Below, one piece after another: positions 4,620-30,034 of a DNA stretch of 41,209 nucleotides. The translations under genes and the position numbers were made by a program. The stretch spans positions 2,194-43,402 of the forward strand of contig CAYSIV010000010.1 of assembly GCA_964431175.1 (NCBI GenBank), given 5' to 3'. Origin of the DNA: an uncultured Anaerolineales bacterium (lineage in GTDB: Bacteria > Chloroflexota > Anaerolineae > Anaerolineales > VGOW01). Numbering within the stretch: the stretch's first letter is position 1; each line of letters starts with the position of its first letter. The notes under the pieces were generated by a model. The model had not been told where the DNA came from, searched no databases, and saw only the letters and a list, made by a program, of their open reading frames with translations.

Positions 4620-4650
4620 AGAAGCTCTGAATAACGAGCGAGAAAACTAA

Positions 4651-4712
4651 CCACGAATTTCACGAATTACACGAAGAAGCACCCACATTCGTGAAATTCG
4701 TGTAATTCGTGG
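4651..4712. repeat. Periodic-unit hairpin element, CACGAAT family
   Basis: The left arm is CCACGAATTTCACGAATTACACGAA, the loop is 12 nt, and the right arm is TTCGTGAAATTCGTGTAATTCGTGG. A related copy lies at 26851-26902. Confidence 0.85.
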
Positions 4713-4745
4713 CGAAGAGTCTTTGCGCTCTTCGCGTCTTGCGGT
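4713..4745. repeat. GCGAAG/GCAAAG-family repeat unit block (small hairpin GCGAAGAG/CTCTTCGC)
   Basis: The minus strand reads CCGCAAGACGCGAAGAGCGCAAAGACTCTTCGC. It shares the 16-mer CGCGAAGAGCGCAAAG with 29256-29275. Confidence 0.75.
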
Positions 4746-4759
4746 TAAACTAGGGCTCA

Positions 4760-5443
4760 ATGAAAATCATCCTCGTGGTTGACGACGAATCGAAGATCAC
4801 ACAGCTGGCTCGCGATTATCTGGAGCATGCCGGGTTTGGAGTGCTGACGGCTCACGACGGGCCAACGGCGCTGGCCGCCGCCCGCTCGGCCAAGCCTGAT
4901 CTGGTCGTCCTCGACCTCGGTCTGCCCAAACTCGACGGCCTCGACGTGACTCGCACCTTGCGCAAAGACTCGCAAGTGCCGATCATCATGCTCACCGCGC
5001 GCGGCGAGGAAAGCGATAAGCTGGTGGGTCTCGAACTCGGCGCCGACGACTACATCACTAAACCGTTCAGCCCCAAGGAACTGGTAGCCCGGGTCCGCGC
5101 CGTTCTGCGCCGGGCCGAAGCCACCGAGACGGCGGCTACTGAGATTATCCGCGCCGCTGACCTGACCCTGGACGCGCCTCGAATGAGGCTGACTCGCGGC
5201 GATCAAGCTATCGAATTGACGACGACCGAGTTTCAACTGCTGGCGGCGCTGGCCGCTCAACCGGGCCGCATCTTCACTCGCGCCCAACTGCTCGACGCCG
5301 TGCGCGGCGTGGCCTTTGAATCTTACGAGCGCGCCATTGATACCCACATCAAAAACATCCGCCGCAAGATCGAACCGGAGCCGCGCGAGCCGCGCTACGT
5401 GTTGACGGTCTACGGAGTCGGCTACAAGTTCGCAGATACTTAA
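4760..5443 (+). CDS. OmpR/PhoB-family response regulator
   Basis: The receiver shows 'ILVVDDE', 'DLVVLDLGLPKLDG' and 'YITKPF'. The C-terminal winged helix shows 'LTTTEFQLLAALA' through 'GVGYKF'. Confidence 0.95.
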   Translation: MKIILVVDDESKITQLARDYLEHAGFGVLTAHDGPTALAAARSAKPDLVVLDLGLPKLDGLDVTRTLRKDSQVPIIMLTARGEESDKLVGLELGADDYITKPFSPKELVARVRAVLRRAEATETAATEIIRAADLTLDAPRMRLTRGDQAIELTTTEFQLLAALAAQPGRIFTRAQLLDAVRGVAFESYERAIDTHIKNIRRKIEPEPREPRYVLTVYGVGYKFADT

Positions 5444-5446
5444 ACA

Positions 5447-5510
5447 AAGGACGTAAGACGGGTGACGAAAGAATCAACACCGTCCTTCGTCCATCGTCTG
5501 CCGTCGTTTC
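5447..5510. repeat. Periodic-unit hairpin element, GACG/CGTC family
   Basis: AAGGACGTAAGACGGGTGACGAAAGA, a loop, then CGTCCTTCGTCCATCGTCTGCCGTCGTTTC. It fills the gap between the response regulator stop and the kinase start. Confidence 0.7.
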
Positions 5511-6627: not shown

Positions 6628-6681
6628 GCTTGTTTGCTACAGAGAGTACAGAGTAGTCTCAAACCTGGCCGGGTTAACAAC

Positions 6682-6718
6682 AACGGGCGCGCAGATGAAA
6701 TTTTGCGCGCCCGTTTTG
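6682..6718. terminator. Intrinsic terminator hairpin between convergent genes
   Basis: The stem is AACGGGCGCGC / GCGCGCCCGTT (11 bp) with a 12-nt loop, followed by TTTTGC on the + strand. Confidence 0.55.
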
Positions 6719-6736
6719 CTGAGAATGGATTGGTGG

Positions 6737-13151: not shown

Positions 13152-13195
13152 CATTTCACCCTCCCACCTCTTGTGGGATTTTTTGTGTGACCGCC

Positions 13196-14257
13196 ATGCT
13201 CGATAAACTCACCGGAATCGAAACCCGCTACGAAGAACTAAACCGTCTGATGTCCGACCCGGCTCAGTTGGATAACTACAGCAAAGTCGCCGAGTTCGCC
13301 AAGGAACGGTCGGCGCTGGAAGAAATTGTGACGAAGTTCCGCGAACACAAAGAGGTGCTCAAGAACCTGGCCGACGCCCGCGCCCTGCTCGACAACGAGG
13401 AAATGAAGGAACTGGCCGAGGCCGAAATCCCCGACCTGGAGAAAAAGCAAGTCGAACTCGAAGCGCAACTTAAGGAGCTTCTCCTGCCCCGCGACCCGCG
13501 CGACCAGAAGAGCGTGATTGTGGAAATTCGAGCCGGGGCCGGTGGCGACGAAGCCGGGTTGTTCGCCGCCGAGCTTTACCGCCTTTACATGCGCTACGCC
13601 GAAGGGCGCGGCTGGAAGGTGTCAATGATGTCGTCGAACGAGAGCGGCATCGGCGGCTTCAAGGAAGTGATCTTTGAAGTGAGCGGCAAGGGCGCGTACT
13701 CGCGGCTCAAATTTGAGTCGGGCGTGCACCGGGTTCAACGGGTGCCCGTCACCGAGTCGTCGGGCCGGATTCACACCTCCACCGCCACCGTGGCCGTGCT
13801 GGCCGAGGTAGATGAAGTGGAAATTGACGTGCCGGACAAAGACGTGAAGATCGACACCTATCGCGCCTCGAGCGCGGGCGGCCAGAACGTGCAGAAGAAC
13901 GCGACCGCAGTGCGCCTCACGCACCTGCCAAGCGGACTCGTGGTGACGTGCGAAGACGAGCGCTCGCAGACCCAAAACCGCCTGCGGGCGATGAGCATTT
14001 TGCGGGCGCGGCTCTATGAAGCTGAAATGGAAAAGCGGCAGATGGCGGCGTCTGTCGAGCGCAAGAGCCAGGTGGGCAGTGGCGACCGGAGCGAGAAGAT
14101 TCGCACCTACAACTTTCCGCAGGGCCGCGTCACCGATCACCGCATCGGCGTCTCGTCTTTCAACCTGCCCGCCGTGATGGACGGCGACATTGACCTGTTT
14201 ATTGACGAACTGGCAACGCGCGAGCAAGCGGAGAAATTGGCGGAGGCGGGGGTATGA
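13196..14257 (+). CDS. prfA: Peptide chain release factor 1
   Basis: The N-terminus 'MLDKLTGIETRYEELNRLMSDP' is typical of RF1. The tripeptide 'PVT' sits in 'RVQRVPVTES', and the GGQ motif in 'SSAGGQNVQKNATAVRLTHLPSG'. I prefer the ATG at 13196 over the GTG at 13187. Confidence 0.97.
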   Translation: MLDKLTGIETRYEELNRLMSDPAQLDNYSKVAEFAKERSALEEIVTKFREHKEVLKNLADARALLDNEEMKELAEAEIPDLEKKQVELEAQLKELLLPRDPRDQKSVIVEIRAGAGGDEAGLFAAELYRLYMRYAEGRGWKVSMMSSNESGIGGFKEVIFEVSGKGAYSRLKFESGVHRVQRVPVTESSGRIHTSTATVAVLAEVDEVEIDVPDKDVKIDTYRASSAGGQNVQKNATAVRLTHLPSGLVVTCEDERSQTQNRLRAMSILRARLYEAEMEKRQMAASVERKSQVGSGDRSEKIRTYNFPQGRVTDHRIGVSSFNLPAVMDGDIDLFIDELATREQAEKLAEAGV

Positions 14258-15522
14258 AGCGAAAAGGGAAAGAATTGAAGGAAAGAAGGGAAACCGACAC
14301 GCTCAGTCTGGAGTCGGTTGAGGGTGCCGCAACAAACGAAGAAAAGCGTGTAGCCGTTTATGACTCTTCCTCAAGGCCCACCATCCCAAGTAGGGTCACT
14401 CCTGAAACGCCTCTAAGCGATCTTAATCTCAACTGGCGTGAAAAAGATTTGCCGGAGCGAGAGCGCACCAAACATGTTCATCGCCTTCACCCTTATCTTG
14501 GTAAATTTATTCCCCAGCTTGCAGAGATTTTTCTACGGAAGTTCCAACCAACCTTAGTTTGTGATCCCTTTTCAGGTTCAGGGACAACTTTAGTCGAGGC
14601 AACGGCTTTCGGCGTCGACTCAGTCGGGTGTGATATATCGGACTTCAATTGCTTGTTGACCCGAGTCAAGACTGCGCGCTACAACCTTCCTTTATTGGAA
14701 CGCGAGATTAAAGACATTATGACAAAGCTGAATCTTCAGCTAAGCGACGATGGACTGTTTGTAAGGAATTTGCCTGAGTCTGTGACCGATAATGATTACT
14801 TGAATGCCTGGCTCCATCCGAATGCTCTCAGGCAGTTGCTTTACTATAGTGAACTAATCCCAAGCTACCAGCATCAGGACTTCCTCAAAGTGGTTTTGTC
14901 ACGCGCAGCAAGGTCAGCAAGATTGACGACACATTTTGACCTGGATTGGCCTAAGAAGCCGCAGACCGAGCCCTATTACTGCTTCAAACATAGCCGCACT
15001 TGCCAGCCAACGGATGATGCTTTGCAGTTTCTTAATCGCTATAGTCTTGATGCCTTGAAACGAGTCAAAGAGTTTGATGTGATCCGGAAGGATGTAGCAA
15101 CCCAGGTTATTTATGGAGATGCGCGAAGCGCGACTTTCTCAAGCGGAATCGACGTTGTAATTACCTCACCGCCCTACGTCGGAATTATTGATTACCATGA
15201 ACAACACCGATACGCTTATGAACTGCTTGGACTGGCCTGGGGCGCAGAAAAGGAAATTGGCCCGGCTTTCAAAGGCAGTTCCAAAGTGGCGCAGAAGACG
15301 TACGTAGAGCAAATATCAGATGTATTTACTAATCTGCGGCGCAGTCTAACGTCAGACGCCGTAGCAGTTATCATAGTCAATGACCGTTACCAACTTTATG
15401 ATGGCTTGCCGGAGCGCTTGGGGTTCAGGTTGGAAGACAGACTGGAACGCCACGTTAATCGGCGCACTGGGATTAGAAGTGGCGAGTTCTTCGAGTCGAT
15501 TTTTGTATGGAGGCGAAGCTAG
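14254..15522 (+). CDS. Amino (N4-cytosine or N6-adenine) DNA methyltransferase
   Basis: 'HRLHPYLGKFIPQL' is followed by the AdoMet motif I 'DPFSGSGTT' (nt 14563-14589). About 190 aa later come 'YGDA' and the catalytic 'VVITSPPYVG' (SPPY at nt 15166-15177). The start ATG overlaps the prfA stop (ATGA). Confidence 0.85.
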   Translation: MKRKGKELKERRETDTLSLESVEGAATNEEKRVAVYDSSSRPTIPSRVTPETPLSDLNLNWREKDLPERERTKHVHRLHPYLGKFIPQLAEIFLRKFQPTLVCDPFSGSGTTLVEATAFGVDSVGCDISDFNCLLTRVKTARYNLPLLEREIKDIMTKLNLQLSDDGLFVRNLPESVTDNDYLNAWLHPNALRQLLYYSELIPSYQHQDFLKVVLSRAARSARLTTHFDLDWPKKPQTEPYYCFKHSRTCQPTDDALQFLNRYSLDALKRVKEFDVIRKDVATQVIYGDARSATFSSGIDVVITSPPYVGIIDYHEQHRYAYELLGLAWGAEKEIGPAFKGSSKVAQKTYVEQISDVFTNLRRSLTSDAVAVIIVNDRYQLYDGLPERLGFRLEDRLERHVNRRTGIRSGEFFESIFVWRRS

Positions 15523-16371
15523 ATGAAAAGTTCGCGCAAATCAAATTTGCCTGACGACCTGAAGCAAGAAATCAGGAGTTATTTATCAAAGAAAGTCAGG
15601 GAGAAATTCGATAAGCGCGAAGAACTTCGCCAAGATTTGGAGGATCAAGACTTGCCATTTCATCGCCGAATATTGCATTTTCTAGGCGAGGATGAGCTAA
15701 AGCGTTTGCTATTTGAAGGTAGTTTTGTTCATGGCTTACACACAAGCATGGGTAACTGGTATCAGTATATGGCAGGTCGCATTGCTGTGCATCATTTTGG
15801 GCTACCTCAAAATCGCCAAGTTACTCAAGTTAAAGTCCGCGGCTATTTATCTGAGGATGTCGTTGCGTGTATAAGCAAAATCATGCTTGACCTTGATGGC
15901 AAGGTGACCGCGCCCAATTATCTGGCTGAAGGCCGGCAGATCAAAGAAGCCATTCTTCGAAGTGACCCTGACGACAAGACCCATGACCGAGAAATCATGG
16001 TGGACTTGTACGTGCCCGAAGCAAAGGATTGGCTACTTGCAGTTGAGATGAAAACACCTAAGACGAACATCTCCATTTTTCGTGGCGAGAAGCGAAAACT
16101 GCTAGAGTTGCGAGCGCTGCTGTTTCAGGAATTTCCCGATAAACCAATTGACAAATTCAAGGTGTGTCTGGCCTTCTCCTACAATCCTTATAAAACACTC
16201 AAAGGCTTTGAGAAAAAGTGGGGCTTTGGAAAAAAACTTATTGACTATGGCAATGATTTACTGATAGGTGAAGACTTCTGGAATTTTATAGGCGGTGAAG
16301 GAACTTATCAGAGTTTGCTGAATGTGGTGAGACAGGTTGGATACACACTGAAAGCCAAAGATTTTAGATGA
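15523..16371 (+). CDS. PD-(D/E)xK nuclease-like protein, probable type II restriction endonuclease (TdeIII-like by recollection)
   Basis: 282 aa, abutting the methyltransferase stop. A D-x13-E-x-K pattern, 'MVDLYVPEAKDWLLAVEMKTPK', lies at nt 16003-16053. The N-terminal 'LPFHRRIL...SFVHGLHTSMGNWYQYMA' and C-terminal 'EDFWNFIGGEGTY' resemble restriction-enzyme families as I remember them. Confidence 0.55.
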   Translation: MKSSRKSNLPDDLKQEIRSYLSKKVREKFDKREELRQDLEDQDLPFHRRILHFLGEDELKRLLFEGSFVHGLHTSMGNWYQYMAGRIAVHHFGLPQNRQVTQVKVRGYLSEDVVACISKIMLDLDGKVTAPNYLAEGRQIKEAILRSDPDDKTHDREIMVDLYVPEAKDWLLAVEMKTPKTNISIFRGEKRKLLELRALLFQEFPDKPIDKFKVCLAFSYNPYKTLKGFEKKWGFGKKLIDYGNDLLIGEDFWNFIGGEGTYQSLLNVVRQVGYTLKAKDFR

Positions 16372-16928
16372 GCCGTAGAGACCGTATGAAAGACGAAGAA
16401 CTGCAAATCCTTATCCTCGAATCTCTGACCGAGTTTTACCAGCGTCGAACGCGGCTTTTGGAAACCCTGAAATTTCGAGACGCTCTCAGGCAGGAGAATC
16501 CATATTTGCTGAGGGTGAATATGGGGCATGGTGGACCAAAGATAGTTGAGCATATCTTGTCTGCTCACCTGAGTCTATCGGATGAACGTTTCTTTGGTGA
16601 AGCTTTCCTAAAGATTGCCAGAGTTGTCTCAAAAGGCTTCGTTTCGCCCAATCAGTTTGGCTATGGTCACTTGTTTAACCAGGCATTTTGGCAGGAGATA
16701 ACAGGCGATCCGGATTTTTATCTGAAAATAATTCGATTGATGGATAATGACACAGTTAGGCAATGCCGTTATGAATTTGACAACGCATGGGCAAATGCAA
16801 ACAATCGTTGCGTTGGAGAGTTTCTCTCCGAATTTTGTAACGAGGACGGAAACATAAATTGGGAACTACTAGTGAAATCGAACAGCGGGTCAGAAAAACC
16901 GCGGAAACAAAAGAAAAAAACAGCATAA
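16368..16928 (+). CDS. Paralog of the preceding nuclease-like protein, lacking the D..ExK core
   Basis: 186 aa. Residues 41-90 align without gaps to residues 41-90 of the 282-aa protein (Q42, acidic 43, P45, aromatic 46, R49, G77, aromatic 80, A84). 'AFWQEITGDPDFY' matches 'DFWNFIGGEGTY'. The roughly 160 aa between these landmarks in the neighbour are absent here. Confidence 0.5.
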   Translation: MSRRDRMKDEELQILILESLTEFYQRRTRLLETLKFRDALRQENPYLLRVNMGHGGPKIVEHILSAHLSLSDERFFGEAFLKIARVVSKGFVSPNQFGYGHLFNQAFWQEITGDPDFYLKIIRLMDNDTVRQCRYEFDNAWANANNRCVGEFLSEFCNEDGNINWELLVKSNSGSEKPRKQKKKTA

Positions 16929-17740
16929 GAATAGCTTTATCTGACGTTGCTGTTTCTACCCTTCCCTCCCGCGAAGCCGCCCTCCTCCTCGCCCACGTCC
17001 TCGGCCAAAGCCGTGAGTGGGTGCTGGCCCATCCCGAAGCCGAACTGACGCCCGAACAGAGCGGACGCTTTGCCAAACTGATTGAACAAGCTGAACGTGG
17101 CACGCCCCTGCCTTACCTGCTAGGCCAGTGGGAATTCTTCGGTCTCAGCTTCAAAGTCACGCCCGACGTTCTCATTCCACGACCGGAAACCGAATTGCTG
17201 GTTGAAAAAGCGTTGGGGAAAACCCCAAAACCCAAAACCCCAAATTCCAAAATCGCTGACGTTGGAACCGGAAGTGGCATCATTGCCATCACGCTCGCAG
17301 TCAAACTTCCGCAAGCTCATATCATCGCCACCGACGTTTCCGTCGCCGCGCTGGAAGTAGCGCGGGCAAATGCAGTTGCTCACAGCGTGGCCGACCGGGT
17401 AAAATTCATTCATGGCGATCTGCTGGAAAGCGCGGGCAAAGTGAACCTGATTTGCGCCAACCTGCCCTACATCTCAACCGTCGAACTCACAACCCTGCCG
17501 GTCGCCAAACACGAGCCGACTCTGGCCCTCGACGGCGGCGAGGACGGTTTGCGGCTCATTGAGCGATTGCTGGCAACCGCAGGCGATCATCTTCTGCCGG
17601 ACGGCGCACTGCTGGCCGAGATTGCGGCCACACAAGGCGAAGCGGCGGCATCCCTGGCCCACCACTACTTCCCCTCAGCGCGAGTGGAAGTCTATAAGGA
17701 TTTGGCCGGACTAGATAGAGTGCTGGAAATTGAAATTTGA
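16859..17740 (+). CDS. prmC: Release-factor glutamine N5-methyltransferase (HemK/PrmC)
   Basis: 'PLPYLLGQWEFFGL', 'VLIPRPETE', motif I 'DVGTGSGIIAI' and the catalytic 'ANLPYI' (an NPPY variant) are present. The only in-frame start upstream of the conserved N-terminus is the ATG at 16859. It lies inside the island and overlaps the previous ORF by 70 nt. Confidence 0.88.
   Translation: MGTTSEIEQRVRKTAETKEKNSIRIALSDVAVSTLPSREAALLLAHVLGQSREWVLAHPEAELTPEQSGRFAKLIEQAERGTPLPYLLGQWEFFGLSFKVTPDVLIPRPETELLVEKALGKTPKPKTPNSKIADVGTGSGIIAITLAVKLPQAHIIATDVSVAALEVARANAVAHSVADRVKFIHGDLLESAGKVNLICANLPYISTVELTTLPVAKHEPTLALDGGEDGLRLIERLLATAGDHLLPDGALLAEIAATQGEAAASLAHHYFPSARVEVYKDLAGLDRVLEIEI
17215..17254. repeat. 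CCCAAAA-type periodic tract inside prmC
   Basis: GGGGAAAACCCCAAAACCCAAAACCCCAAATTCCAAAATC encodes 'GKTPKPKTPNSKI' just before motif I. An inverted relative lies at 17775-17798. Confidence 0.8.
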
Positions 17741-17774
17741 TTTGGCTCTCGCGTGCTTTTTGCGGGCTGTGCCT

Positions 17775-17798
17775 GGGATTTTGGGATTTGGGATTTTG
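17775..17798. repeat. GGGATTTT periodic tract (inverse of the 17223-17254 tract)
   Basis: GGGATTTTGGGATTTGGGATTTTG lies in the prmC-HAD intergenic gap. It generates the spurious N-terminal extension 'WDFGIWDFAF' in the ORF track. Confidence 0.8.
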
Positions 17799-17803
17799 CT
17801 TTT

Positions 17804-18616
17804 ATGATTCGTCTCGCCGCCTTCGACCTCGACGGCACGCTCGTGGGCCACGATCTGAAACTTAGCCCCCGAGTGAAGGCTGCCATAGCCCGTGCTCAGG
17901 TGCAGGGCGTTGTCATCAGCCTGGCCACCGGGCGCGGCCCTTCGCCCACCGACCAGTTCGCCGCCGAATTAAACATCACCGCGCCCCTCATCTGCTTTCA
18001 GGGCGGCATTGTGTATGACTACCGCACTCGCAAAATTCTGCACGAAACGCGCCTCGACCCTGTCGTGGTGCCCATCATCGTCCGGCTGGCCGGAGAGCGC
18101 GGCTGGAACTTGCAGTTCGAAAGCCCGGATATGATCTACCTGCCCCGCGAGTCGAATCATCCCGAAGCGCTGTTTAATTTGCTCAAGGTATCTAACTGGA
18201 AGCGGGTGGATAACTTCCTCACTGATCTGCCGGAGACGCCGCACAAGTTCATTCTCTCGGTGCACGACACCGCCGAACGCGATGCGCTGGCCGCCGAACT
18301 CAAGGCCAGTTTTGACAAAACTTTGGCCGAAATCACGGTTGTGCCGTCGCACCCTATATTGGTCGAAGGCTTGCCGCGTGGCATGAGCAAGGCGGTTGGG
18401 CTTGAGTGGCTGGCAAGCCACCTGAACATCGCTCGCCAAGAGGTACTGGCCGTGGGCGACAACGACAACGATGCCGAGATGTTGAAGTGGGCCGGGGTCG
18501 GGGTGGCCATGGGCAACAGCAGCCCCGCCGCCCGCGCCGCCGCCGACTGCATCGCGCCGCCATTGAGTGAAGATGGGGCGGCAGTGGCGCTGGAGAAATG
18601 TCTTGAAGAGAATTAA
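17804..18616 (+). CDS. Cof-type HAD-IIB family hydrolase (sugar-phosphate phosphatase-like)
   Basis: The sequence starts 'MIRLAAFDLDGTL' (DxD nucleophile motif), with 'SLATGR' and 'GDNDNDAEML' downstream. I prefer the ATG at 17804 over 17753. Confidence 0.9.
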   Translation: MIRLAAFDLDGTLVGHDLKLSPRVKAAIARAQVQGVVISLATGRGPSPTDQFAAELNITAPLICFQGGIVYDYRTRKILHETRLDPVVVPIIVRLAGERGWNLQFESPDMIYLPRESNHPEALFNLLKVSNWKRVDNFLTDLPETPHKFILSVHDTAERDALAAELKASFDKTLAEITVVPSHPILVEGLPRGMSKAVGLEWLASHLNIARQEVLAVGDNDNDAEMLKWAGVGVAMGNSSPAARAAADCIAPPLSEDGAAVALEKCLEEN

Positions 18617-18681
18617 CCGCGAAGACGCAAAGGGCGCTAAGATTTCTCTGTTTTTCTTTGCGTGCTTCGCGCCTTCGCGGT
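18616..18681. repeat. Periodic-unit hairpin element, GCGAAG/GCAAAG family
   Basis: ACCGCGAAGACGCAAAGGGCGC, a loop, then CTTTGCGTGCTTCGCGCCTTCGCGGT. It lies between the HAD stop and the tsaC start. Confidence 0.75.
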
Positions 18682-19882: not shown

Positions 19883-20971
19883 ATGATCATCGGCGTTGAC
19901 GCCAGCCGGACGACGGTCGCCCGCCGCACCGGCACCGAGGCCTATTCGCTGGCGATCACCCGCGCCCTCCTCAACCTGAATTCGCCCCACCAGTGGCGGT
20001 TGTACTTTCGCGATGAACCACTTTCTGATTTATTTCCGCCGACAGAAACCCTAAGGGTCTTTAAGACCCTTAGGGTTTCGCGGCTGTGGACTCATCTCGG
20101 CATCTCGAATGAACTGCGCCGATCCGCGCCCAGCCGCCTTTTCATCCCCGCCCACGTTCTGCCCGTTTACCACCCCTGCCCGTCAGTCGTCACCATTCAC
20201 GATTTGGGCTACCTGCGCTTTCCCGACTCTCACCCGCCCGGCCAACGCCTCTATCTTGATTGGTCAACGCGCTTCAGCGCCCGCTTCGCTTCGGCCATCA
20301 TTGCCGACAGTGAAGCCACCAAACGCGACCTCGTCGAACACTATAATGTCCCGCCGGAAAAAATCAACGTCGTCTACCCCGGCTACGACAACTCGCTCAA
20401 GCCGGTGCGTCACCCCTCGCGCCGCAACCCGGTTCTTGAGAAGTACAACATCAGCCAAAACTTTCTGCTTCACGTTGGCACGATCCAGCCGCGCAAGAAT
20501 CTCGAACGGCTGATTGACGCTTACGATCCGAGCCAAATCGCGCTGGTGCTGGCCGGGCGGCGCGGCTGGCTCTCGGACTCGATTTACGAGAAGGGCAAAG
20601 CTAAAGGGGCGCTGTTTTTGGATTACGTGGCCGACGACGATTTGGCCGCCTTGTACTCGTCGGCCACGGCCTGCGTTGCGCCTTCTTTATATGAAGGCTT
20701 CGGCTTCACCGTGCTGGAGGCCATGGCTTGCGGCGCGCCCGTCATCTGCTCCGACGGCGGCTCACTGCCCGAAGTGGCCGGGGACGCCGCCGTCGTCGTC
20801 CCGGCTCATGACACTCAGGCTCTGGCCGAAGCCATTCGGCGTGTCGTCACCGATTCTGATTTGCGCCGGACGATGACCATGCAGGGCTTCCGCAACCTGG
20901 GCCGCTTCTCGTGGCGGCGCGCGGCGGAGCAGACGTTACGAGTGATTGAGTCAACTGGGTCAACGGATTGA
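19883..20971 (+). CDS. GT-B glycosyltransferase, family 1/4
   Basis: 'HVGTIQPRKN' and the C-terminal signature 'PSLYEGFGFTVLEAMACGAPVICSDGGSLPEV' are present. Confidence 0.9.
   Translation: MIIGVDASRTTVARRTGTEAYSLAITRALLNLNSPHQWRLYFRDEPLSDLFPPTETLRVFKTLRVSRLWTHLGISNELRRSAPSRLFIPAHVLPVYHPCPSVVTIHDLGYLRFPDSHPPGQRLYLDWSTRFSARFASAIIADSEATKRDLVEHYNVPPEKINVVYPGYDNSLKPVRHPSRRNPVLEKYNISQNFLLHVGTIQPRKNLERLIDAYDPSQIALVLAGRRGWLSDSIYEKGKAKGALFLDYVADDDLAALYSSATACVAPSLYEGFGFTVLEAMACGAPVICSDGGSLPEVAGDAAVVVPAHDTQALAEAIRRVVTDSDLRRTMTMQGFRNLGRFSWRRAAEQTLRVIESTGSTD
20045..20079. repeat. 35-nt near-perfect palindrome embedded in-frame in the glycosyltransferase gene
   Basis: GAAACCCTAAGGGTCTT-T-AAGACCCTTAGGGTTTC is translated as 'ETLRVFKTLRVS', which repeats TLRV. 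Confidence 0.9.
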
Positions 20972-21024
20972 ACGGATTTAGCGGATTGTTTTTAATTTAT
21001 CCGTTCAATCCGCTAAATCCGTTG
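20961..21024. repeat. Periodic-unit hairpin element, CGGATT family
   Basis: CAACGGATTGAACGGATTTAGCGGAT, a 12-nt loop, then ATCCGTTCAATCCGCTAAATCCGTTG. It spans the stop of the GT1 gene and creates the spurious 'MNGFSGLFLIYPFNPLNPL' extension of the next ORF. Confidence 0.85.
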
Positions 21025-21033
21025 ATCCTTCTT

Positions 21034-22031: not shown

Positions 22032-23114
22032 GTGAGTGATATGGAGGTCCGCAACCTTCGCCAGCCGTTTAGACTTGGCTTCGCCTGGGCGTTCTGGGGA
22101 ATTGCCCTCGGAGCGGCGGCAATTTTTATCGCTTTTCCGTTGGAGCGATTAGACCCGCCGCCGGTGGCGCTGGTGCTCTTGATTCAGGAACAGGGCCGGG
22201 CGTTGCTGGCGCTCTTGTGGCCTTTGGCCACCGCCGCCGTTCTTGGCGCGGGCGTGGGCATAACCGAGTTGTCGTCATACAAAGAGTTGTGGCGGGAGGC
22301 GATTGGCGCGCGTTGGGGCATGTACTTGATCCTGCTCAACACGGCGGTGGCAGCGCTGGCTTACGTCGCCGTTCGGGCCTACATGCCTGAGACTGATCCT
22401 TTTCTCCTGGCGATTAGCGTGGGCGTGGGCTTCCCGGCCTTGATTCGCACCAAGTTTACCCTGGTCAAGCAATTTGGCGGCGAAGGCGGCTCCGACATTG
22501 CCCTGAATCTCGGCTGGCTATACGACCAGTTTCAGAATTTTTGCCGGCAGGAAATTGACAAGGAGATCTTCACCTTTCGCCAGGTCGTCGCCAACAAGCT
22601 GATCGAACAGTATCCGACGATTCAGGAACTGTATCAGTTGGCCCTCTACACTCTCAAAACTCGCACCAACCTGCCTCTAGTCGAGGAAGAGGCGCGCCTC
22701 AAAGACTTGCAGGAGTTGATCGATCCACAGGTGCCGCCGGAAGTAGCGCGGATTAACCTGGGTCTTTTTGTGCTTGAGCTGGGCGGGGTGGGATACGTGG
22801 ATTTGCTCGTTCGGGCTAAAGCCAGGAAAGAAATTTCTCCTATGGCTTCAGCCGCCGCGCCCATTCCCTCAGCCGCCTCTGCCGGTTCGTCGGCCGAAAC
22901 CGTGGTGAAAAGACTGGTGGAATTACCGCTGGCCGATCTGGAAAAATTGGCGCTGGACTTGCTTAACTCATCCAACGACCAGGGCTGGGTGAAGCAGGCC
23001 GCTGAACCCGCGCCCGGCATCTCCGAAGTGCGCCAGAAAGCGCCCATTGCCTACTACGTCGTCTCGCATGCCGGAGAAGAAGCAGCATCGCAGGCGCTGA
23101 AGAATAGAGGTTAG
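22032..23114 (+). CDS. Membrane protein (about 4 N-terminal TM helices plus helical cytoplasmic domain), function unknown
   Basis: A 360-aa ORF with a GTG start 4 nt after the preceding stop. I recognise no motif. Confidence 0.5.
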   Translation: MSDMEVRNLRQPFRLGFAWAFWGIALGAAAIFIAFPLERLDPPPVALVLLIQEQGRALLALLWPLATAAVLGAGVGITELSSYKELWREAIGARWGMYLILLNTAVAALAYVAVRAYMPETDPFLLAISVGVGFPALIRTKFTLVKQFGGEGGSDIALNLGWLYDQFQNFCRQEIDKEIFTFRQVVANKLIEQYPTIQELYQLALYTLKTRTNLPLVEEEARLKDLQELIDPQVPPEVARINLGLFVLELGGVGYVDLLVRAKARKEISPMASAAAPIPSAASAGSSAETVVKRLVELPLADLEKLALDLLNSSNDQGWVKQAAEPAPGISEVRQKAPIAYYVVSHAGEEAASQALKNRG

Positions 23115-23169
23115 AAGTTGGAGATTGGATGTTGGACTCTTCTCCAACATCTAGCCTCCAACATCCAAA
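23111..23169. repeat. Periodic-unit hairpin element, TTGGAGATTGGA family
   Basis: TTAGAAGTTGGAGATTGGATGTTGGA, loop CTCTTC, then TCCAACATCTAGCCTCCAACATCCAAAC. The first 26 nt match the reverse complement of 30009-30034 at 24 of 26 positions. Confidence 0.85.
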
Positions 23170-25055: not shown

Positions 25056-26696
25056 ATGGCAGACATGAAAGGCAAGTCGCGCGAAGAAATCATTCAACAG
25101 GACGTGCGCGACCTTCACAAGCTGGGCTACGCCCAGCAGTTGTTCCGCGAGATGGGCGGGTTCTCCAACTTCGCCATCTCGTTTTCGATTATTTCTATCC
25201 TCACCGGGGCGATCCTGCTCTACGGCTACGGTCTGCAGTTCGCCGGGCCGATCATCAACACCTACGGCTGGCCGCTGGTGAGCTTTTTCGTGCTGTGCAT
25301 TGCGGCCTCGATGGCCGAACTGGCTTCGGCCTACCCTACGGCGGGCGGCCTGTACTTCTGGGCGCACCGGTTGGGCGGCTACAAGTGGGCCTGGGTGACG
25401 GCTTGGTTCAACATGCTCGGCCAGATCATGATCACCGCCGGTATCAACTTCGCCGCCGCGATTTACATCGCCGGGGCGGTCAACCGCCTCTTTGGCGCGA
25501 GCATTGACACCACCAACACGATGACGATGGTCGTCGTCATGACCATCATCATGATCCCGCAGGTACTGATCAACATCTTCGGCATCAAGCTCACCGCTTT
25601 TCTCAACGACTTCAGCGTGTACTGGCACATCGGCGGCGTAATCATCATGGCGCTGTTGCTCACGATCTTCGGCACGCACGCCCAGCCGTTCAGCTTCCTG
25701 TTTCAGGGCGCCGTGTCGGTCAACCCCAATGACCTGGCGGGCTCATTCGCCGCCGGCCCATTCACCTTCAACTCGCTGATGATGAAGATACCGGGCTTCG
25801 TCGGGCTGTACGCGGGTGGCGGGCTGGCGCTGGCCTTTGTGCTGGGCCTGCTGCAAGCGCAGTGGACGTACACCGGCTACGACGCTTCGGCGCACGTGGC
25901 CGAAGAGACGGTGATGGCTCGCCTGAATAGCGCCTGGGGTGTGTTCCTCTCGGTGGCAGTGTCGTTCGTGGTCGGTTACGTGATGTTGCTCATCCTCACC
26001 CTGCACATCCCCGACATCGCGGCGACGATTGATCCGGCGAACTCACCGGCGGTGCTATACATCGTGTATTCCAACTTCGACAACGTGCTGTTCGGCCACA
26101 TTATCGCCGTCATCATCGGCGTAGCTATGTGGCTGTGCGGCCTGTCGTCCATCACCAGCATGAGCCGCATGTGGTTCGCCTTTGCCCGCGACGGCGGCAT
26201 GCCGGGCCACGGCCTGATCAAGCAGATCCACCCCAAGTGGCGCACGCCGATGTGGTCCATCATCATTACCAGCGTGCTCGCCGTGCTGTTGACTGTGTAC
26301 GCCGCGGTGTACTCGGCCATTGTGGCCGTCAGCACGACCGCGCTGTATCTGGCTTACGGCATCCCGATCTACTTGAACGTAATGAACAAGATGAAGAAGC
26401 AGGGCGAGTATGCCACGCCGGAGACCGCGCCGTGGAGCCTGAAGAACTGGGGCACGGTGATCAACTGGATCGCCATTGCCTGGATCGTGTTCATCACCAT
26501 CCTTTTCTCCATCCCGCCGAACGAACTGGCCGGGTGGTCTATCATCACCCTGGGCGTGTTCATGGTGCTCTACTGGCAGTTGGATGCCAAGAAGCGCTTC
26601 AGCGGCCCGAAGAAGACGGCGGAGGAAGACCTGCGCCGCATCGAGGCTGATATGGCCGCCGCGGCCAAAGCTGGCGGTGGTGACGGGCAGGATTAG
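25056..26696 (+). CDS. APC-superfamily permease (amino acid/choline-type); ethanolamine transporter by context
   Basis: 546 aa with about 12 TM helices. 'ELASAYPTAGGLYFWA' and 'GYDASAHVAEE' are typical APC signatures. A GGAGGAG Shine-Dalgarno lies 8 nt upstream of the ATG at 25056. Confidence 0.85.
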   Translation: MADMKGKSREEIIQQDVRDLHKLGYAQQLFREMGGFSNFAISFSIISILTGAILLYGYGLQFAGPIINTYGWPLVSFFVLCIAASMAELASAYPTAGGLYFWAHRLGGYKWAWVTAWFNMLGQIMITAGINFAAAIYIAGAVNRLFGASIDTTNTMTMVVVMTIIMIPQVLINIFGIKLTAFLNDFSVYWHIGGVIIMALLLTIFGTHAQPFSFLFQGAVSVNPNDLAGSFAAGPFTFNSLMMKIPGFVGLYAGGGLALAFVLGLLQAQWTYTGYDASAHVAEETVMARLNSAWGVFLSVAVSFVVGYVMLLILTLHIPDIAATIDPANSPAVLYIVYSNFDNVLFGHIIAVIIGVAMWLCGLSSITSMSRMWFAFARDGGMPGHGLIKQIHPKWRTPMWSIIITSVLAVLLTVYAAVYSAIVAVSTTALYLAYGIPIYLNVMNKMKKQGEYATPETAPWSLKNWGTVINWIAIAWIVFITILFSIPPNELAGWSIITLGVFMVLYWQLDAKKRFSGPKKTAEEDLRRIEADMAAAAKAGGGDGQD

Positions 26697-26706
26697 CCTC
26701 GCCCCT

Positions 26707-26758
26707 CCCGCGCTCCTCTCTTGTCCGCGTTGTTTGGCGGGCAGGAGAGGAGCGCGGG
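26707..26758. other. Long GC-rich stem-loop after the permease gene (no U-tract)
   Basis: CCCGCGCTCCTCTCTTGTCCGC, loop GTTGTTTG, then GCGGGCAGGAGAGGAGCGCGGG. That is 22 positions with 2 mismatches. Confidence 0.6.
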
Positions 26759-26850
26759 TCGCCCTCGCAATTCTCATCTCCACGAAATTACAAAAACCCT
26801 GTTATCATTTGCCTCAGCGCTTGAGGTAGATTGACCTCTCAGTTATACTG

Positions 26851-26902
26851 TTCGTGAAACTCGTGTAACACGAACACTTGCCTGCTAGCGCAAGTGTTCG
26901 TG
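26851..26902. repeat. CACGAA-family element with perfect 13-bp hairpin, immediately upstream of eutB
   Basis: TTCGTGAAACTCGTGTAA differs by 1 nt from 4688-4705. It is followed by the stem CACGAACACTTGC / GCAAGTGTTCGTG. The element ends 16 nt before the eutB ATG. Confidence 0.85.
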
Positions 26903-26918
26903 GCAAAGGCCTATTCTT

Positions 26919-28286
26919 ATGCTCCTTCGCACTAAACTTCACGGCAAGACTTACGAATTCCCCGACATCCGCCTCCTCATGGGTAAAGCCAATGAGGAGA
27001 AGTCCGGCGACCGGCTGGCCGGGGTGGTCGCCGAGACGACCGCCGAACGCGTGGCCGCCCGCTTCGTTCTGGCCGAAGTGCCGCTGTGGGTCCTGCGCCA
27101 GAACCCTGCCGTCCCCTACGAGCAAGACGAAGTCACCCGGGTGATTCAGGATGCCGTAAACGAGACAGCCTACAACGAGATCAAAGATTGGACAGTGGGC
27201 GGACTGCGCGAATGGCTTCTGGCCGACACCACCACCAGCGGCATGATCCAGCGCATCTCCACCGGACTCACTGCCGAGATGATCTCCGCCGTCACCAAAC
27301 TCATGTCCAATTTGGACTTGATGTATTGCGCCAAAAAGATTCCGCGCACCGCTCACTGCGCCAACACCATCGGCTCGCCCGGCACGCTCTCCAGCCGCAA
27401 CCAGCCCAACCACCCCACCGACTCGCCGGAAGGCATCCGCGCCGAAATCTACGAAGGCCTTTCCTACGGCAGTGGCGACTCGGTCATCGGCATCAATCCG
27501 GTTGACGACTCGTACGGTTCTGTCGCCCGCCTGCTCGACATGACTTACGACGTCATCAAGACGTGGAACATTCCGACCCAGAACTGTGTGCTCTCTCACG
27601 TCACCACCCAGATGAAATGCCTGCAATCCGGTTCGCCAATCGGCCTGGTCTTCCAATCCATCGCCGGGTCGCAAAAGGGCAACGATTCCTTCGGCATTTC
27701 GGTCGGCATGTTGGATGAAGCTTACGCCCTGGCCAAAAAATACTGCTTCCCGGCCGGCCCCAACTTCATGTACTTTGAAACCGGGCAGGGCTCGGCTCTT
27801 TCGGCTGAAGCCCACAATGGCTGGGATCAACTCACTCTCGAAGCTCGCAACTATGGCCTGGCCAAACGCTGGAATCCTTATCAGGTCAACACCGTCGTTG
27901 GCTTTATCGGCCCCGAATATCTCTTCGACGCTCGCCAGATTCAACGCGCCGGGCTTGAAGATCACTTCATGGGCAAGCTGACCGGCATCCCGATGGGCGT
28001 TGACGCCTGCTACACCAACCATGCCCGCGCCGATCAAAATGCCATCGAGAATCTGGCGGTGATGCTCACCGCCGCCGGGTGCAACTACTTCATGGGCGTG
28101 CCGATGGGCGACGACTCGATGCTCTCGTATCAATGCACCAGTTATCACGACGCCCCAACCTTGCGTCAACTCTTCGGCTTGCGCCCCGCGCCGGAGTTCG
28201 AAGCCTGGCTTACAGAACTCGGCTTGATGAAAAACGGCGTGCTGACCGAGAAGGCTGGCGATCCGACGTTCTTCCTGAAGAGGTGA
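26919..28286 (+). CDS. eutB: Ethanolamine ammonia-lyase large subunit
   Basis: 455 aa. The N-terminus 'KLHGKTYEFPDIRLLMGKANEEKSGDRLAGV' and the overall length are typical of EutB. Confidence 0.97.
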   Translation: MLLRTKLHGKTYEFPDIRLLMGKANEEKSGDRLAGVVAETTAERVAARFVLAEVPLWVLRQNPAVPYEQDEVTRVIQDAVNETAYNEIKDWTVGGLREWLLADTTTSGMIQRISTGLTAEMISAVTKLMSNLDLMYCAKKIPRTAHCANTIGSPGTLSSRNQPNHPTDSPEGIRAEIYEGLSYGSGDSVIGINPVDDSYGSVARLLDMTYDVIKTWNIPTQNCVLSHVTTQMKCLQSGSPIGLVFQSIAGSQKGNDSFGISVGMLDEAYALAKKYCFPAGPNFMYFETGQGSALSAEAHNGWDQLTLEARNYGLAKRWNPYQVNTVVGFIGPEYLFDARQIQRAGLEDHFMGKLTGIPMGVDACYTNHARADQNAIENLAVMLTAAGCNYFMGVPMGDDSMLSYQCTSYHDAPTLRQLFGLRPAPEFEAWLTELGLMKNGVLTEKAGDPTFFLKR

Positions 28287-28290
28287 CCAC

Positions 28291-29235
28291 ATGGATGAAA
28301 CTCAGCTCAACGCCATCATCGAAGCAGTTGTAAAAGAACTGGCGGCGGCCAAGGTTGGAACGCCGCTTGCCTCAGGGGAAGCCGCTCCGGCACCCAAAGC
28401 TTCCCCCTCAGAGGCGGCTCCAACTTCCAACTTCCAATCTCAAATCTCTAATCTCAATATCGATCTTCCTGATCCCACCCTGCCCGAGCATCGTTACAAG
28501 CCGCGAGTCAAGAATCCCAAAGACGCCGACGCCGTCAAAGCCCTCATCGCCTCCACCACTGCGCGTATCGGGGTGGGCCGGGCCGGGCCGCATTACAACA
28601 CCTTCTCGCTCCTGCTCTTTCAGGGTGATCACGCCATTACCCAGGACGCCCTCATGCGCGATGTCGATCAAAAACTACTCGACGACCTGGGCCTCTTCAC
28701 CGTGCAAACCAACATCCAAGGCGGCAAACAGGAATATTTACTGCGGCCCGATCTGGGGCGGCAGTTGAGCGATGAGGCGAAGAAAGTGATCGGCGAGAAG
28801 TGCGTCAAGTCGCCCAACATTCAACTCGTCGTCGGCGACGGGTTGAGCGCCGCCGCTGTAGAAGCCAACGCGCGCGAAATGTTCCCGGTCATTATGCAAG
28901 GCGCAAAGTCCGCCGGGTTGAGCGTGGGCACGCCGTTCTTCATTAAGTATTGCCGGGTGGGGGTGTTGAACGACATCGGCGAAATGCTCAAGCCCGATGT
29001 TGTGATTCTGCTCATCGGCGAGCGCCCCGGCCTGGGCCGCGCCGAGTCGCTAAGCGCCTACATGGCTTATCGCCCCAAAACCGGCGACACCGACGCCGAC
29101 CGCGACGTGGTGTGCAACATCTTCAACAACGGCGGCACTAACCCGCTCGAAGGCGCGGCCTTCACCATCCAGGTCGCGCAGAAGATGATGAAACAGCAGG
29201 CCAGCGGGGTGAAGCTAAAATTGGCAACGAAGTAA
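28291..29235 (+). CDS. eutC: Ethanolamine ammonia-lyase small subunit with N-terminal amphipathic helix and extended linker
   Basis: The C-terminal 220 aa are EutC-like ('ARIGVGRAGPHY', 'LVVGDGLSA', 'IGERPGLG'). The N-terminus 'MDETQLNAIIEAVVKELAAA' is followed by a Pro/Ala/Ser-rich linker. Confidence 0.93.
   Translation: MDETQLNAIIEAVVKELAAAKVGTPLASGEAAPAPKASPSEAAPTSNFQSQISNLNIDLPDPTLPEHRYKPRVKNPKDADAVKALIASTTARIGVGRAGPHYNTFSLLLFQGDHAITQDALMRDVDQKLLDDLGLFTVQTNIQGGKQEYLLRPDLGRQLSDEAKKVIGEKCVKSPNIQLVVGDGLSAAAVEANAREMFPVIMQGAKSAGLSVGTPFFIKYCRVGVLNDIGEMLKPDVVILLIGERPGLGRAESLSAYMAYRPKTGDTDADRDVVCNIFNNGGTNPLEGAAFTIQVAQKMMKQQASGVKLKLATK
28420..28458. repeat. CCAACTT/CCAATCT/TAATCTC periodic tract inside the eutC linker
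   Basis: CCAACTTCCAACTTCCAATCTCAAATCTCTAATCTCAAT encodes 'TSNFQSQISNLN'. It resembles the arms of the 29981-30034 element. No inverted partner is nearby. Confidence 0.75.
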
Positions 29236-29247
29236 ATTCACTGCAAA

Positions 29248-29314
29248 GAACCGCTTCGCGAAGAGCGCAAAGTTCCTTTTTTTAATTCCTGGCGTCTTTC
29301 GCGCCTCGCGGTTC
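29248..29314. repeat. Periodic-unit hairpin element, GCGAAG/GCAAAG family
   Basis: GAACCGCTTCGCGAAGAGCGCAAAG, a T-rich loop, then GCGTCTTTCGCGCCTCGCGGTTC. It lies between eutC and eutL. Confidence 0.8.
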
Positions 29315-29326
29315 AAAGGAGAAAGC

Positions 29327-29983
29327 ATGGCTGCACTCGATCCCATTTACGCCACCCCGCTCGCCGTTCGCATGATCCCGAATGTTGATCCGAATTTTGC
29401 CGAGCAATTGAAACTCAAGCCGGAGCAAAAATCCATCGGCCTGATTACGGCTGACAACGACGATGCCACTTACGTCTCGGTTGACGAAGCCACCAAGATG
29501 GCCGACGTGGAAGTGGTGTACGCGCGCTCGTTTTACGCCGGAGCCAGGCATGCCTCGGGCCTGCTCTCTGGCGAAATTCTGGCCGTCATTGCCGGGCCAA
29601 ACCCCGCCGAAGTCCGCGCCGGGTTGAGCGCCGCTCTCAATTACATGAAGAACGAGGCCATCTGGTATTCGGCCAACGAAGATGCTTCAATTGCGTTCTT
29701 CCCGCACCTTATCTCACGCACCGGCACCTATCTTTCGAAAACCTGCAACATCCCGCTCGGCGATCCGATTGCTTATCTCATCGCCCCGCCGCTCGAAGGC
29801 GTATACGCGCTCGATGCCGCCCTCAAAGCCGCCGCCGTGCACATCGTTGCTCTCACCATGCCGCCCTCCGAGACAAACTATATGGGCGTCATGCTCACCG
29901 GCGATCAGCCCGCCTGCAAAGCCGCCACCATTGCCTTCCGCGAAGCGGTGTTGGAAGTGGCGAGAGACCCGATTAAATTCTAG
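29327..29983 (+). CDS. eutL: BMC-T (tandem-domain) shell protein EutL
   Basis: 218 aa. 'LDPIYATPLAVRMIPNVDPNFAEQLKLKPEQKSIGLITADNDDATYVSVDEATK' and 'GPNPAEVRAGL' match my memory of EutL closely. Confidence 0.93.
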   Translation: MAALDPIYATPLAVRMIPNVDPNFAEQLKLKPEQKSIGLITADNDDATYVSVDEATKMADVEVVYARSFYAGARHASGLLSGEILAVIAGPNPAEVRAGLSAALNYMKNEAIWYSANEDASIAFFPHLISRTGTYLSKTCNIPLGDPIAYLIAPPLEGVYALDAALKAAAVHIVALTMPPSETNYMGVMLTGDQPACKAATIAFREAVLEVARDPIKF

Positions 29984-30034
29984 AGATTAGAGATTGGACG
30001 TTAGAATATCTAACGTCCAATCTCCAACTTCTAA
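29981..30034. repeat. Periodic-unit hairpin element, TTGGAGATTGGA family (16-bp perfect core stem)
   Basis: TAGAGATTAGAGATTGGACGTTAGA, loop ATA, then TCTAACGTCCAATCTCCAACTTCTA. It starts at the eutL stop codon and ends 16 nt before the BMC-H ATG. Confidence 0.9.

Follow-up and report, generated by a model that had tools for sequence, protein, structure and literature searches.

Hairpins built from short tandem repeats and placed at gene junctions are a poorly understood class of bacterial element. In filamentous cyanobacteria, STRR sequences with 7-bp units can fold into hairpins of unknown function in the gaps of co-transcribed gene pairs (hupS and hupL, for example), and roles in transcript stability or translational coupling have been proposed (PMC2670836). 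Xanthomonas GGGAATC heptamer arrays number 70-75 per genome as convergent inverted pairs, and 89-93% of these are intergenic (Rehm et al. 2015, PMC4692102). The Xanthomonas arrays are transcribed and are found close to the stop codon of the upstream gene or across it, for the most part where neighboring genes share an orientation. Their position is conserved between species, with variation in length and sequence (PMC4692102). TAACTGA heptamers of Beggiatoaceae and cyanobacteria are direct repeats, with one inverted case among 170 sets (PMC4679880), and REP sequences consist of one stem of 5-13 bp that bears an unpaired tag (GTAG or CGTC) and are linked to RAYT transposases (PMC3733652). Here, we extend the class of repeat-built junction hairpins to Chloroflexota through an analysis of 41,209 nt of contig CAYSIV010000010.1 (assembly GCA_964431175.1), hereafter the window, whose EutC and EutB homologs point to an uncultured Anaerolineales host. 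Our literature searches found no description of such hairpins in Anaerolineae.

We lean toward reading these elements as intercistronic or 3'-end stem-loops, with arms of 7-9-nt tandem units arranged as an inverted pair, that would be made and remodelled by slippage and would act in the transcript. The evidence that bears on this reading comes from folding, from placement relative to genes, from orthologous junctions in relatives, and from the distribution of the unit families, including one that is found in phages.

Structure and placement of the tandem-unit hairpins

A sequence-only reading of the window had listed 12 loci as sharing one hairpin architecture. We folded each of these against 200 dinucleotide shuffles; nine are real hairpins with z-scores of -2.6 to -8.9 (Table 1), whereas the loci at 17215, 17774, and 28419 do not fold as hairpins (z -1.6 to +1.0) and are one-directional arrays. 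The three longest inverted repeats of the window are among the listed loci, each with a 12-nt loop, and ungapped hairpins outnumber those in dinucleotide shuffles of the whole window both at 14 or more paired bases (7 observed versus 0.27) and at 20 or more (4 versus 0). The hairpins are real and far above chance. Tandem Repeats Finder (TRF) detects units of period 7-9 in 2.6-4.3 copies in the arms at 4652, 4687, 20962, 20999, and 23107, that is, in the hairpins at 4651, 20957, and 23111, and also in the one-directional arrays at 28419 and 28436. The units of the other hairpins are seen by eye, and in the stretch 26851-26902 they make up only part of the element. The layout is shared and the sequences differ, in keeping with the view that these are not copies of one element. 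The same junction hairpins are also present in an isolate genome and in assemblies produced independently (JGI, ENA, and NCBI), which rules out an assembly artefact. Rfam 15 returns no match to the hairpins at gathering score and, at E-values up to 1, only generic microRNA-precursor models far under their thresholds.

The CACGAA-N3 hairpin at 4651 has a hypothetical gene on one side (stop at 4619) and a response-regulator gene on the other (start at 4760). Its 25-nt arms (4651-4675 and 4688-4712) pair at 23 of 25 positions around a 12-nt loop (4676-4687) and are built from a 9-nt unit composed of an invariant hexamer and a variable triplet. The left arm reads CCACGAATTT-CACGAATTA-CACGAA; in the right arm, AAATTCGTG precedes TAATTCGTGG, a swapped unit order that leaves two mismatches and had been recognized correctly in the sequence-only reading. 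This hairpin is enclosed by an outer, degenerate stem of GCRAAG type, in which about 4633-4642 pairs with 4735-4746 and the right-arm units are TCTTTGCG, CTCTTCGCG, and TCTTGCGG (4721-4745).

With curated gene starts, the intergenic share of the window is 6.9%, and all nine hairpins fall in it. As had been proposed, they sit at junctions between co-directional genes: 8 of the 14 co-directional gaps of at least 40 nt contain one, as against none of the four other gaps. Five hairpins overlap the upstream stop codon or begin within 4 nt of it, and the hairpin feet stop 4-17 nt short of the next start. The left arm of the 20957 hairpin contains the GT1 stop codon (20969-20971), and the WecG start (21034) is 5 nt past the foot; the EutA start (23173) is 4 nt past the foot of the 23111 hairpin, and neither eutA nor wecG has room for a Shine-Dalgarno sequence between foot and start. 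The hairpin at 29981, which overlaps the stop codon 29981-29983, is followed by one. The stem foot puts the upstream stop codon beside the downstream start and so could couple translation of the neighboring genes.

This placement matters for annotation, since hairpins fill most intra-operon gaps in the lineage of the window and create false N-terminal extensions of open reading frames. Those suspected at 20968 and 23118 are indeed false, as the WecG (246 aa) and EutA (479 aa) of relatives fit starts at 21034 and 23173; the one at 17753 is probably false as well, with a start at 17805 that is read from sequence only.

The hairpins are AT-richer than the window (GC 36-58% versus ~60%), and none is followed by a proper U-tract: the T count in the next 10 nt is 0-4 for eight of the nine, and a weak T-run follows the hairpin at 20957. 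In a terminator-pattern scan of the first 20 kb and of 26600-27000, the tandem-unit hairpins at 4651, 5447, and 18616 are missing from the sense-strand hits. T-tracts do follow GC-rich hairpins within the convergent gap at 6628-6736 and ahead of prfA (13162-13178), and the convergent gap at 2461-2489 is filled by a GC-rich hairpin that lacks one. U-tract terminators are thus likely to exist in the organism beside the tandem-unit hairpins. We therefore reject the latter as intrinsic (Rho-independent) terminators, given that they have no U-tract while T-tract hairpins occur elsewhere in the window.

The element upstream of eutB is composite, and a sigma-70-like promoter site (26821-26849; TTGAGG, 17 nt, TATACT), whose motif is also visible at the corresponding junction in the relatives L001 and L004, lies between its pieces. 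The hairpin at 26869-26902 (z -4.6) would thus sit at the 5' end of the eutB transcript.

Table 1. Repeat-built elements of the window; positions are counted from its first nucleotide
Element	Position	Strand	Folding and other observations
Outer degenerate GCRAAG-type hairpin enclosing the CACGAA hairpin	4632-4746	+	RNAfold of whole gap 4620-4759
CACGAA-N3 hairpin	4651-4712	+	-30.5 kcal/mol, z -8.3
Small inner GCGAAGAG hairpin inside the outer stem	4712-4737	+	z -3.3
GACG-unit hairpin, response-regulator/histidine-kinase gap	5447-5510	+	z -2.6, weakest of the set
One-directional CCCAAAA/CCCCAAA array inside prmC	17215-17254	+	Encodes loop GKTPKPKTPNSK
One-directional TGGGATTT array, prmC-HAD gap	17774-17798	+	TRF, folding
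GCGAAG/GCAAAG-unit hairpin	18616-18681	+	z -5.1; from HAD hydrolase stop codon to 8 nt before Sua5-like start
AACGGATT 9-nt-unit hairpin, GT1-WecG	20957-21028	+	z -8.9
TTGGAGA/TTGGATG heptamer hairpin	23111-23168	+	z -5.3; overlaps stop codon 23112-23114
Composite CACGAA-type element upstream of eutB	26780-26903	+	CCACGAAATTAC (26780-26791), units TTCGTGAAACTCGTGTAA (26851-26868), hairpin 26869-26902
One-directional TCCAACT/AATCTCA heptamer array, eutC N-terminal linker (TSNFQSQISNLN)	28419-28457	+	TRF
GCGAAG/GCAAAG-unit hairpin, eutC-first bacterial microcompartment (BMC) shell gene	29248-29314	+	z -3.3; Shine-Dalgarno after hairpin
TAGAGAT/TTGGACG heptamer hairpin between two BMC shell genes	29981-30033	+	z -8.5

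Orthologous junctions and turnover of the units

A comparison of orthologous junctions, which the sequence-only reading had put forward as a check, reveals that hairpins are kept at the same junctions in relatives, either with turnover of the units (heptamers) or with conservation of the arms (CACGAA). On the eut side we used three syntenic loci (L001, L002, and L004; EutC 90-94% identical). The hypothetical gene-eutA, eutC-BMC, and BMC-BMC junctions harbor a hairpin in all four genomes, at -13 to -46 kcal/mol, and the units differ. The hypothetical gene-eutA junction carries TTGGAGA/TTGGATG in the window, AGTAATT/GGTAATT in L001, GGAGATT in L002, and TTAGAGT in L004; at eutC-BMC the GCGAAG/GCAAAG family is also found in L004, with other families in L001 and L002, and upstream of eutB related units are found in L002. 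At fourfold degenerate sites, identity among the four genomes is 68-78% (68-73% when the window is compared with each relative). Neutral DNA should therefore still align, and turnover of the heptamer hairpins outpaces point substitution. TTRG is common to many of the heptamer variants (TTGGAGA, TTAGAGA, TTGGTAA, and TTAGTAA), so that part of the apparent replacement can be a mutated unit spreading through both arms. Other changes look like true replacement, for example, GCGAAG versus GTAATTG at eutC-BMC.

The CACGAA hairpin behaves differently from the heptamers. A protein search identified L166 (GCA_016197225.1), which is syntenic from helicase to prmC and encodes a histidine kinase 84% identical to that of the window; a metagenome scan with the same kinase yielded remote relatives only, none of them above 67% identity. 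In L166 the hairpin is kept between the same flanking genes (5399-5461), with arms identical at 48 of 50 positions (96%), a loop that is about half identical, and gap flanks at 65-74%. Fourfold sites of the adjacent regulator gene are identical at 82 of 122 positions (67%), and sequence diverging at this neutral rate would show no more than two differences over 50 sites with a probability of <1e-6. The arms are conserved above the neutral rate. The AACGGATT family is likewise kept at GT1-WecG in L006 (3208-3267), where the flanking proteins are ~70% identical. The 9-nt-unit families are conserved in sequence and the 7-nt families mainly in place and shape.

Further relatives bear on the hairpin loops. 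L167 retains the outer GCRAAG-type stem and a CTTTGCG x3 array with two unrelated GC-rich palindromes in the loop, which suggests nested insertion, and only the right CACGAA arm remains in L168. Hairpin loops look like insertion sites. At GT1-WecG of L004 (1146-1335; also in L005), a GC-rich, miniature-transposon-like palindrome of ~190 nt splits the loop of the AACGGATT hairpin.

The arrays seen inside genes are all one-directional. Length differences in the eutC linker among relatives are exactly 21 nt, corresponding to three units or 7 aa. The prmC loop is CCCAAAA-built in the window versus GTTCACT x2 in the corresponding loop of L166, and an orthologous linker reads TTAGAGATTGGAGA in L011 versus TTGGTAATTGGTAATT in L014. 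Because linkers differ in whole units or in unit sequence between relatives, unit slippage is active in the lineage. Hairpin heptamers recur in coding linkers, and the hairpin units seed variable repeat-encoded linkers in proteins such as EutC and PrmC. The arrays at 17215 (CCCAAAA) and 17774 (TGGGATTT) are mutual reverse complements ~520 nt apart that bracket the 3' half of prmC, which may be a coincidence or a long-range inverted pair. A pure GTGCAAA heptamer array of at least 12 copies (L017, 2590-2679) reaches the end of an Anaerolineales-group contig, and long arrays of this type may break assemblies.

As stem-loops of the transcript, the elements would have units that arise and turn over via replication slippage. 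Their two arms would stay complementary because pairing is selected for, because one arm serves as the template when the other is repaired, or for both reasons. A stable stem that lacks a U-tract would protect or separate mRNA segments. A role in mRNA (stability, processing, or translational coupling) is plausible; an RNA-level role is in line with the positions, the conserved or co-varying arms, and the absence of U-tracts.

Unit families, viral instances, and arm polarity

Hairpins with arms that overlap a TRF repeat of period 6-10 are found at 9.6 per 100 kb in close relatives, 4.1 in other Anaerolineales, 1.7 in other Chloroflexota, and 1.0 in non-Chloroflexota, the last being marginal low-complexity hits. 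Hairpins with tandem-repeat arms comprise 24% of all hairpins in close relatives versus 3% in non-Chloroflexota (Fisher p = 2e-5). Unit-family arrays number 53 in 679 kb of Chloroflexota loci versus 5 in 771 kb, a count biased by the definition of the families from the Chloroflexota set. The unit types form recurrent families with recognizable ends (CCACGAA...TTCGTGG and AACCGCRAAG...CTTYGCGGTT) at several loci and in independent genomes, with two or three loci per family in the 41-kb window. The earlier interpretation is supported in part: the architecture is shared, but the units are not particular to single loci and belong to recurrent families, with CACGAA also present in phage contigs and a betaproteobacterial prophage. 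Since families recur across loci, genomes, and phages, "several dispersed families" is a better description than local products of one generating mechanism.

The phage instances were found by searching IMG/VR viral contigs with the pattern CCACGAA-N3-CACGAA-N10-40-TTCGTG-N3-TTCGTGG, which matches 17 contigs, about a dozen of them distinct. Two scrambled-core patterns gave no match each, as did a CGGATT pattern and two heptamer-family patterns; a viral scan by GCRAAG end motifs alone gave mostly spurious hits without repeated units. One instance (L185) is in a Mu-like prophage of Sulfuriferula multivorans, a cultured betaproteobacterium, which rules out a restriction of the CACGAA family to Chloroflexota; for the heptamer families, with their lack of viral hits, such a restriction holds as far as tested. 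The only named relative of the L181 viral capsid is from a Chloroflexi bin (48% identity), which is not decisive for the host. The viral hairpins come after major head, major tail, portal, and large terminase genes, and 13-14 of 18 CACGAA instances start 0-55 nt after a stop codon. The spacer triplets, left free in the pattern, are paired at 35 of 57 positions versus 25% expected (p = 7e-9), and their sequences differ. A third CACGAA-like unit, not demanded by the pattern, is present in most instances, and when five instances are aligned, both partners have changed in a compensatory way in 4 of the 18 stem pairs. Two of the CACGAA-bearing viral contigs, L169 (2313-2379, 6861-6920) and L170 (3988-4043, 6985-7047), also harbor hairpins of other families, GAATGAT and AGGGATT; the AGGGATT units resemble the G-rich heptamers of Xanthomonas and Nostoc.

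Across 45 tandem-unit hairpins, the purine-rich arm is 5' and the pyrimidine-rich arm 3' in 40 (p = 8e-8 counted per hairpin; roughly 18 versus 2-3 by family). An inverted repeat reads alike on both strands, so this polarity is an isomer preference and not a gene-orientation effect. It places a new constraint on any mechanism, which must account for it. It also bears on terminators or attenuators that act without a U-tract and lower read-through in operons, an account that the pyrimidine-rich 3' arm would suit, along with the long stable stems and the sites directly after stop codons, including those of phage major head and major tail genes. We consider this account very unlikely, as the U-tract is missing though GC-rich T-tract hairpins exist in the window, several hairpins abut the next start codon of seemingly coupled genes, and the hairpin at 26869-26902 lies downstream of the promoter-like site, at a transcript 5' rather than 3' end.

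The isomer preference, with sites pointing toward each other, could alternatively reflect protein binding to double-stranded DNA, three direct sites facing three inverted ones in an array for a regulator or nucleoid protein. The hexamer cores (CACGAA, CGGATT) are kept while the spacers vary, and the 4651 element precedes the operon of a two-component regulator. Against this, the spacers co-vary to keep pairing, for which a double-stranded site has no need, the 7-9-bp spacing is out of phase with the DNA helix, one genome has many different cores, and the CACGAA family also follows unrelated phage genes; we regard this as the least probable of the alternatives. An operator for the adjacent OmpR-type regulator in particular is unlikely, given the 9-nt unit spacing and the occurrence of the same family after unrelated phage genes.

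A further idea, which we hold to be rather unlikely, is that a conserved host factor, for instance one for RNA processing, RNA binding, or termination, recognizes the CACGAA-N3 hairpin (and perhaps the hairpins of each family) as a signal by its specific sequence. Phages of several phyla would copy this signal to set expression levels in late operons. If true, the hairpins would be a U-tract-independent "operon punctuation," with the purine-arm-first polarity as part of recognition.

The main rival to stem-loops acting in the transcript is that these are selfish or neutral palindromic repeats, REP- or miniature-transposon-like and without host function, that spread among loci and genomes and survive only at harmless sites such as junctions and protein linkers. 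Families with recognizable ends at unrelated loci, in independent genomes, and in phages speak for such repeats, as do the nested insertions in hairpin loops, the variable presence at GT1-WecG, the lack of a sense-strand G-U bias, and the occurrence of one family at neighboring junctions within a genome (GTAATT in L001 and TTAGAG in L004, each at two junctions). Harder to reconcile with them are the CACGAA arms, 96% identical versus a neutral 67% at the orthologous site with a drifting loop, the occupation of three eut junctions in all four relatives, and the very regular placement from a stop codon to shortly before the next start. Moreover, no transposase is nearby in the window, and target-site duplications and GTAG or CGTC end tags (PMC3733652) are lacking. 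In the flanks of 19 CACGAA hairpins, we find neither tag nor target-site duplication, and the adjoining bases lengthen the stem instead. On this evidence, selfish or neutral repeats are a possible but unlikely explanation.

Several observations also weigh against an origin by slippage and a role in the transcript. Presence varies: the response-regulator/kinase hairpin at 5447 is absent from L166, where the gap is 17 nt, and the GT1-WecG hairpin is absent from L001, where the genes overlap by 4 nt. Local slippage does not account for the recurrence of the exact CACGAA core in distant hosts. The same units also grow in protein linkers, where a hairpin role is impossible, so that mutation could account for much of the pattern. 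Finally, the fold energy of the sense strand is no different from that of the antisense strand (p = 0.38), and G-U pairs show no sense excess (42 sense versus 49 antisense, a comparison of low power); the absence of a sense-strand signature is also as expected from a DNA-level palindrome or a selfish element. With these points counted, stem-loops that work in the transcript remain the reading we prefer, by a modest degree of confidence.

Genomic setting and comparison with described systems

Pfam scans identify the window as a chromosome piece with mostly plus-strand genes, and a scan of reference genomes with EutB gives a gradient from Anaerolineales to Actinomycetota and Clostridia. The upstream part encodes a peptidase, a DEAD helicase, the response-regulator/histidine-kinase pair, and a STAND-WD40 protein, followed by prfA, a restriction-modification island, prmC, and genes for a HAD hydrolase, a Sua5-like protein, LiaF, GT1, and WecG. 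The ethanolamine cluster consists of eutA, a permease gene, eutB, eutC, and two BMC shell genes, and large sensor kinases are also present. The restriction-modification island (14254-16930), with DNA methylase and TdeIII-type and EcoO109I-type endonuclease genes between prfA and prmC, has a GC of 0.49-0.51 versus ~0.60 for the window, and looks recently inserted because prfA and prmC are directly adjacent in L166. The window has 4 nt between eutB and eutC (28287-28290) and no gene there; relatives encode in this position a protein of 131-165 aa with a coiled-coil look by sequence (L001 9511-10008, L002 9613-10008, and L004 9514-10008), which is entirely missing from the window.

Two other palindromic repeats are distinct from the tandem-unit hairpins. 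Two copies of a small palindrome, AGACCCTTAGGGTCT, with a TAA/TTA separator form a separate repeated element at 20045-20079, where it lies in frame in the GT1 gene and substitutes a variable loop (ETLRVFKTLRV). The same element recurs in L001 (5877-5913, intergenic at least there), L008 (2222-2254), L014 (20883-20915), and L030 (8299-8331). Upstream of eutB, a REP-like palindrome, GTGGGAGCGGCTTGTAGCCGCGAT...ATCGCGGGTGCAACCCGCTCCCAC, is found in L001 (7931-7982), L002 (8008-8074), and L004 (7157-7217). The window lacks this palindrome; it has another hairpin, GC-rich and of 22 bp, at 26707-26758.

Turning to the described systems, the tandem-unit hairpins resemble REP/REPIN sequences as short, dispersed intergenic palindromes of several families that often lie between co-directional genes and are targets of nested insertion. 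Roles in mRNA stabilisation have been proposed for REP/REPIN sequences as well. Unlike these, the window elements have no tag, have no transposase nearby, and show internal tandem periodicity in their arms. No RAYT gene (an IS200/IS605-type tyrosine transposase) is found within the window, and we reject REP/RAYT membership for want of an end tag and a nearby transposase. Membership among miniature inverted-repeat transposable elements is also rejected, as the whole element is an inverted repeat with a 3-30-nt loop and no flank is duplicated in 19 instances. The TAACTGA repeats share the heptamer array, concentrate just upstream of start codons in filamentous bacteria, and have a scattered phylogeny (PMC4679880); they are nearly all one-directional, whereas the inverted hairpin layout is the rule in the intergenic gaps described here.

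The closest likenesses are to the STRR hairpins and the Xanthomonas pairs. Like STRR, the window elements have head-to-tail units of ~7 bp (confirmed by TRF), several families per genome, and a place in operon gaps, where they can form a hairpin between co-transcribed genes; unlike STRR, they occur in an Anaerolineales host of the Chloroflexota and not in cyanobacteria, their unit sequences are different, and the 4651 element has 9-nt units. They share with the Xanthomonas pairs the close, convergent arrays in intergenic positions beside the upstream stop codon, and the conservation of position among relatives with variation in length and sequence; the convergent orientation in Xanthomonas also matches the purine-arm-first bias. 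The Xanthomonas arrays have one dominant G-rich, G-quadruplex-capable unit, whereas many families are found here, most without G-runs. The hairpin units CACGAAT, GCGAAG, CGGATT, TTGGAGA, and GACG are not of the G-rich quadruplex type, and GGGAATC-like units are limited to the one-directional array at 17774 and to AGGGATT in viral contig L170.

What is new relative to these systems is the coexistence of many families in Anaerolineales, the purine-first polarity, a CACGAA-N3 family that is conserved, crosses phyla, and is carried by phages, and the connection with linkers of proteins that the repeats encode. The presence of CACGAA-N3 in phages and in a cultured betaproteobacterium makes hairpin function experimentally reachable. 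On this comparison, the elements are best regarded as the Anaerolineae counterpart of the cyanobacterial STRR hairpins and the Xanthomonas inverted heptamer pairs, and hence as members of a kind already known.

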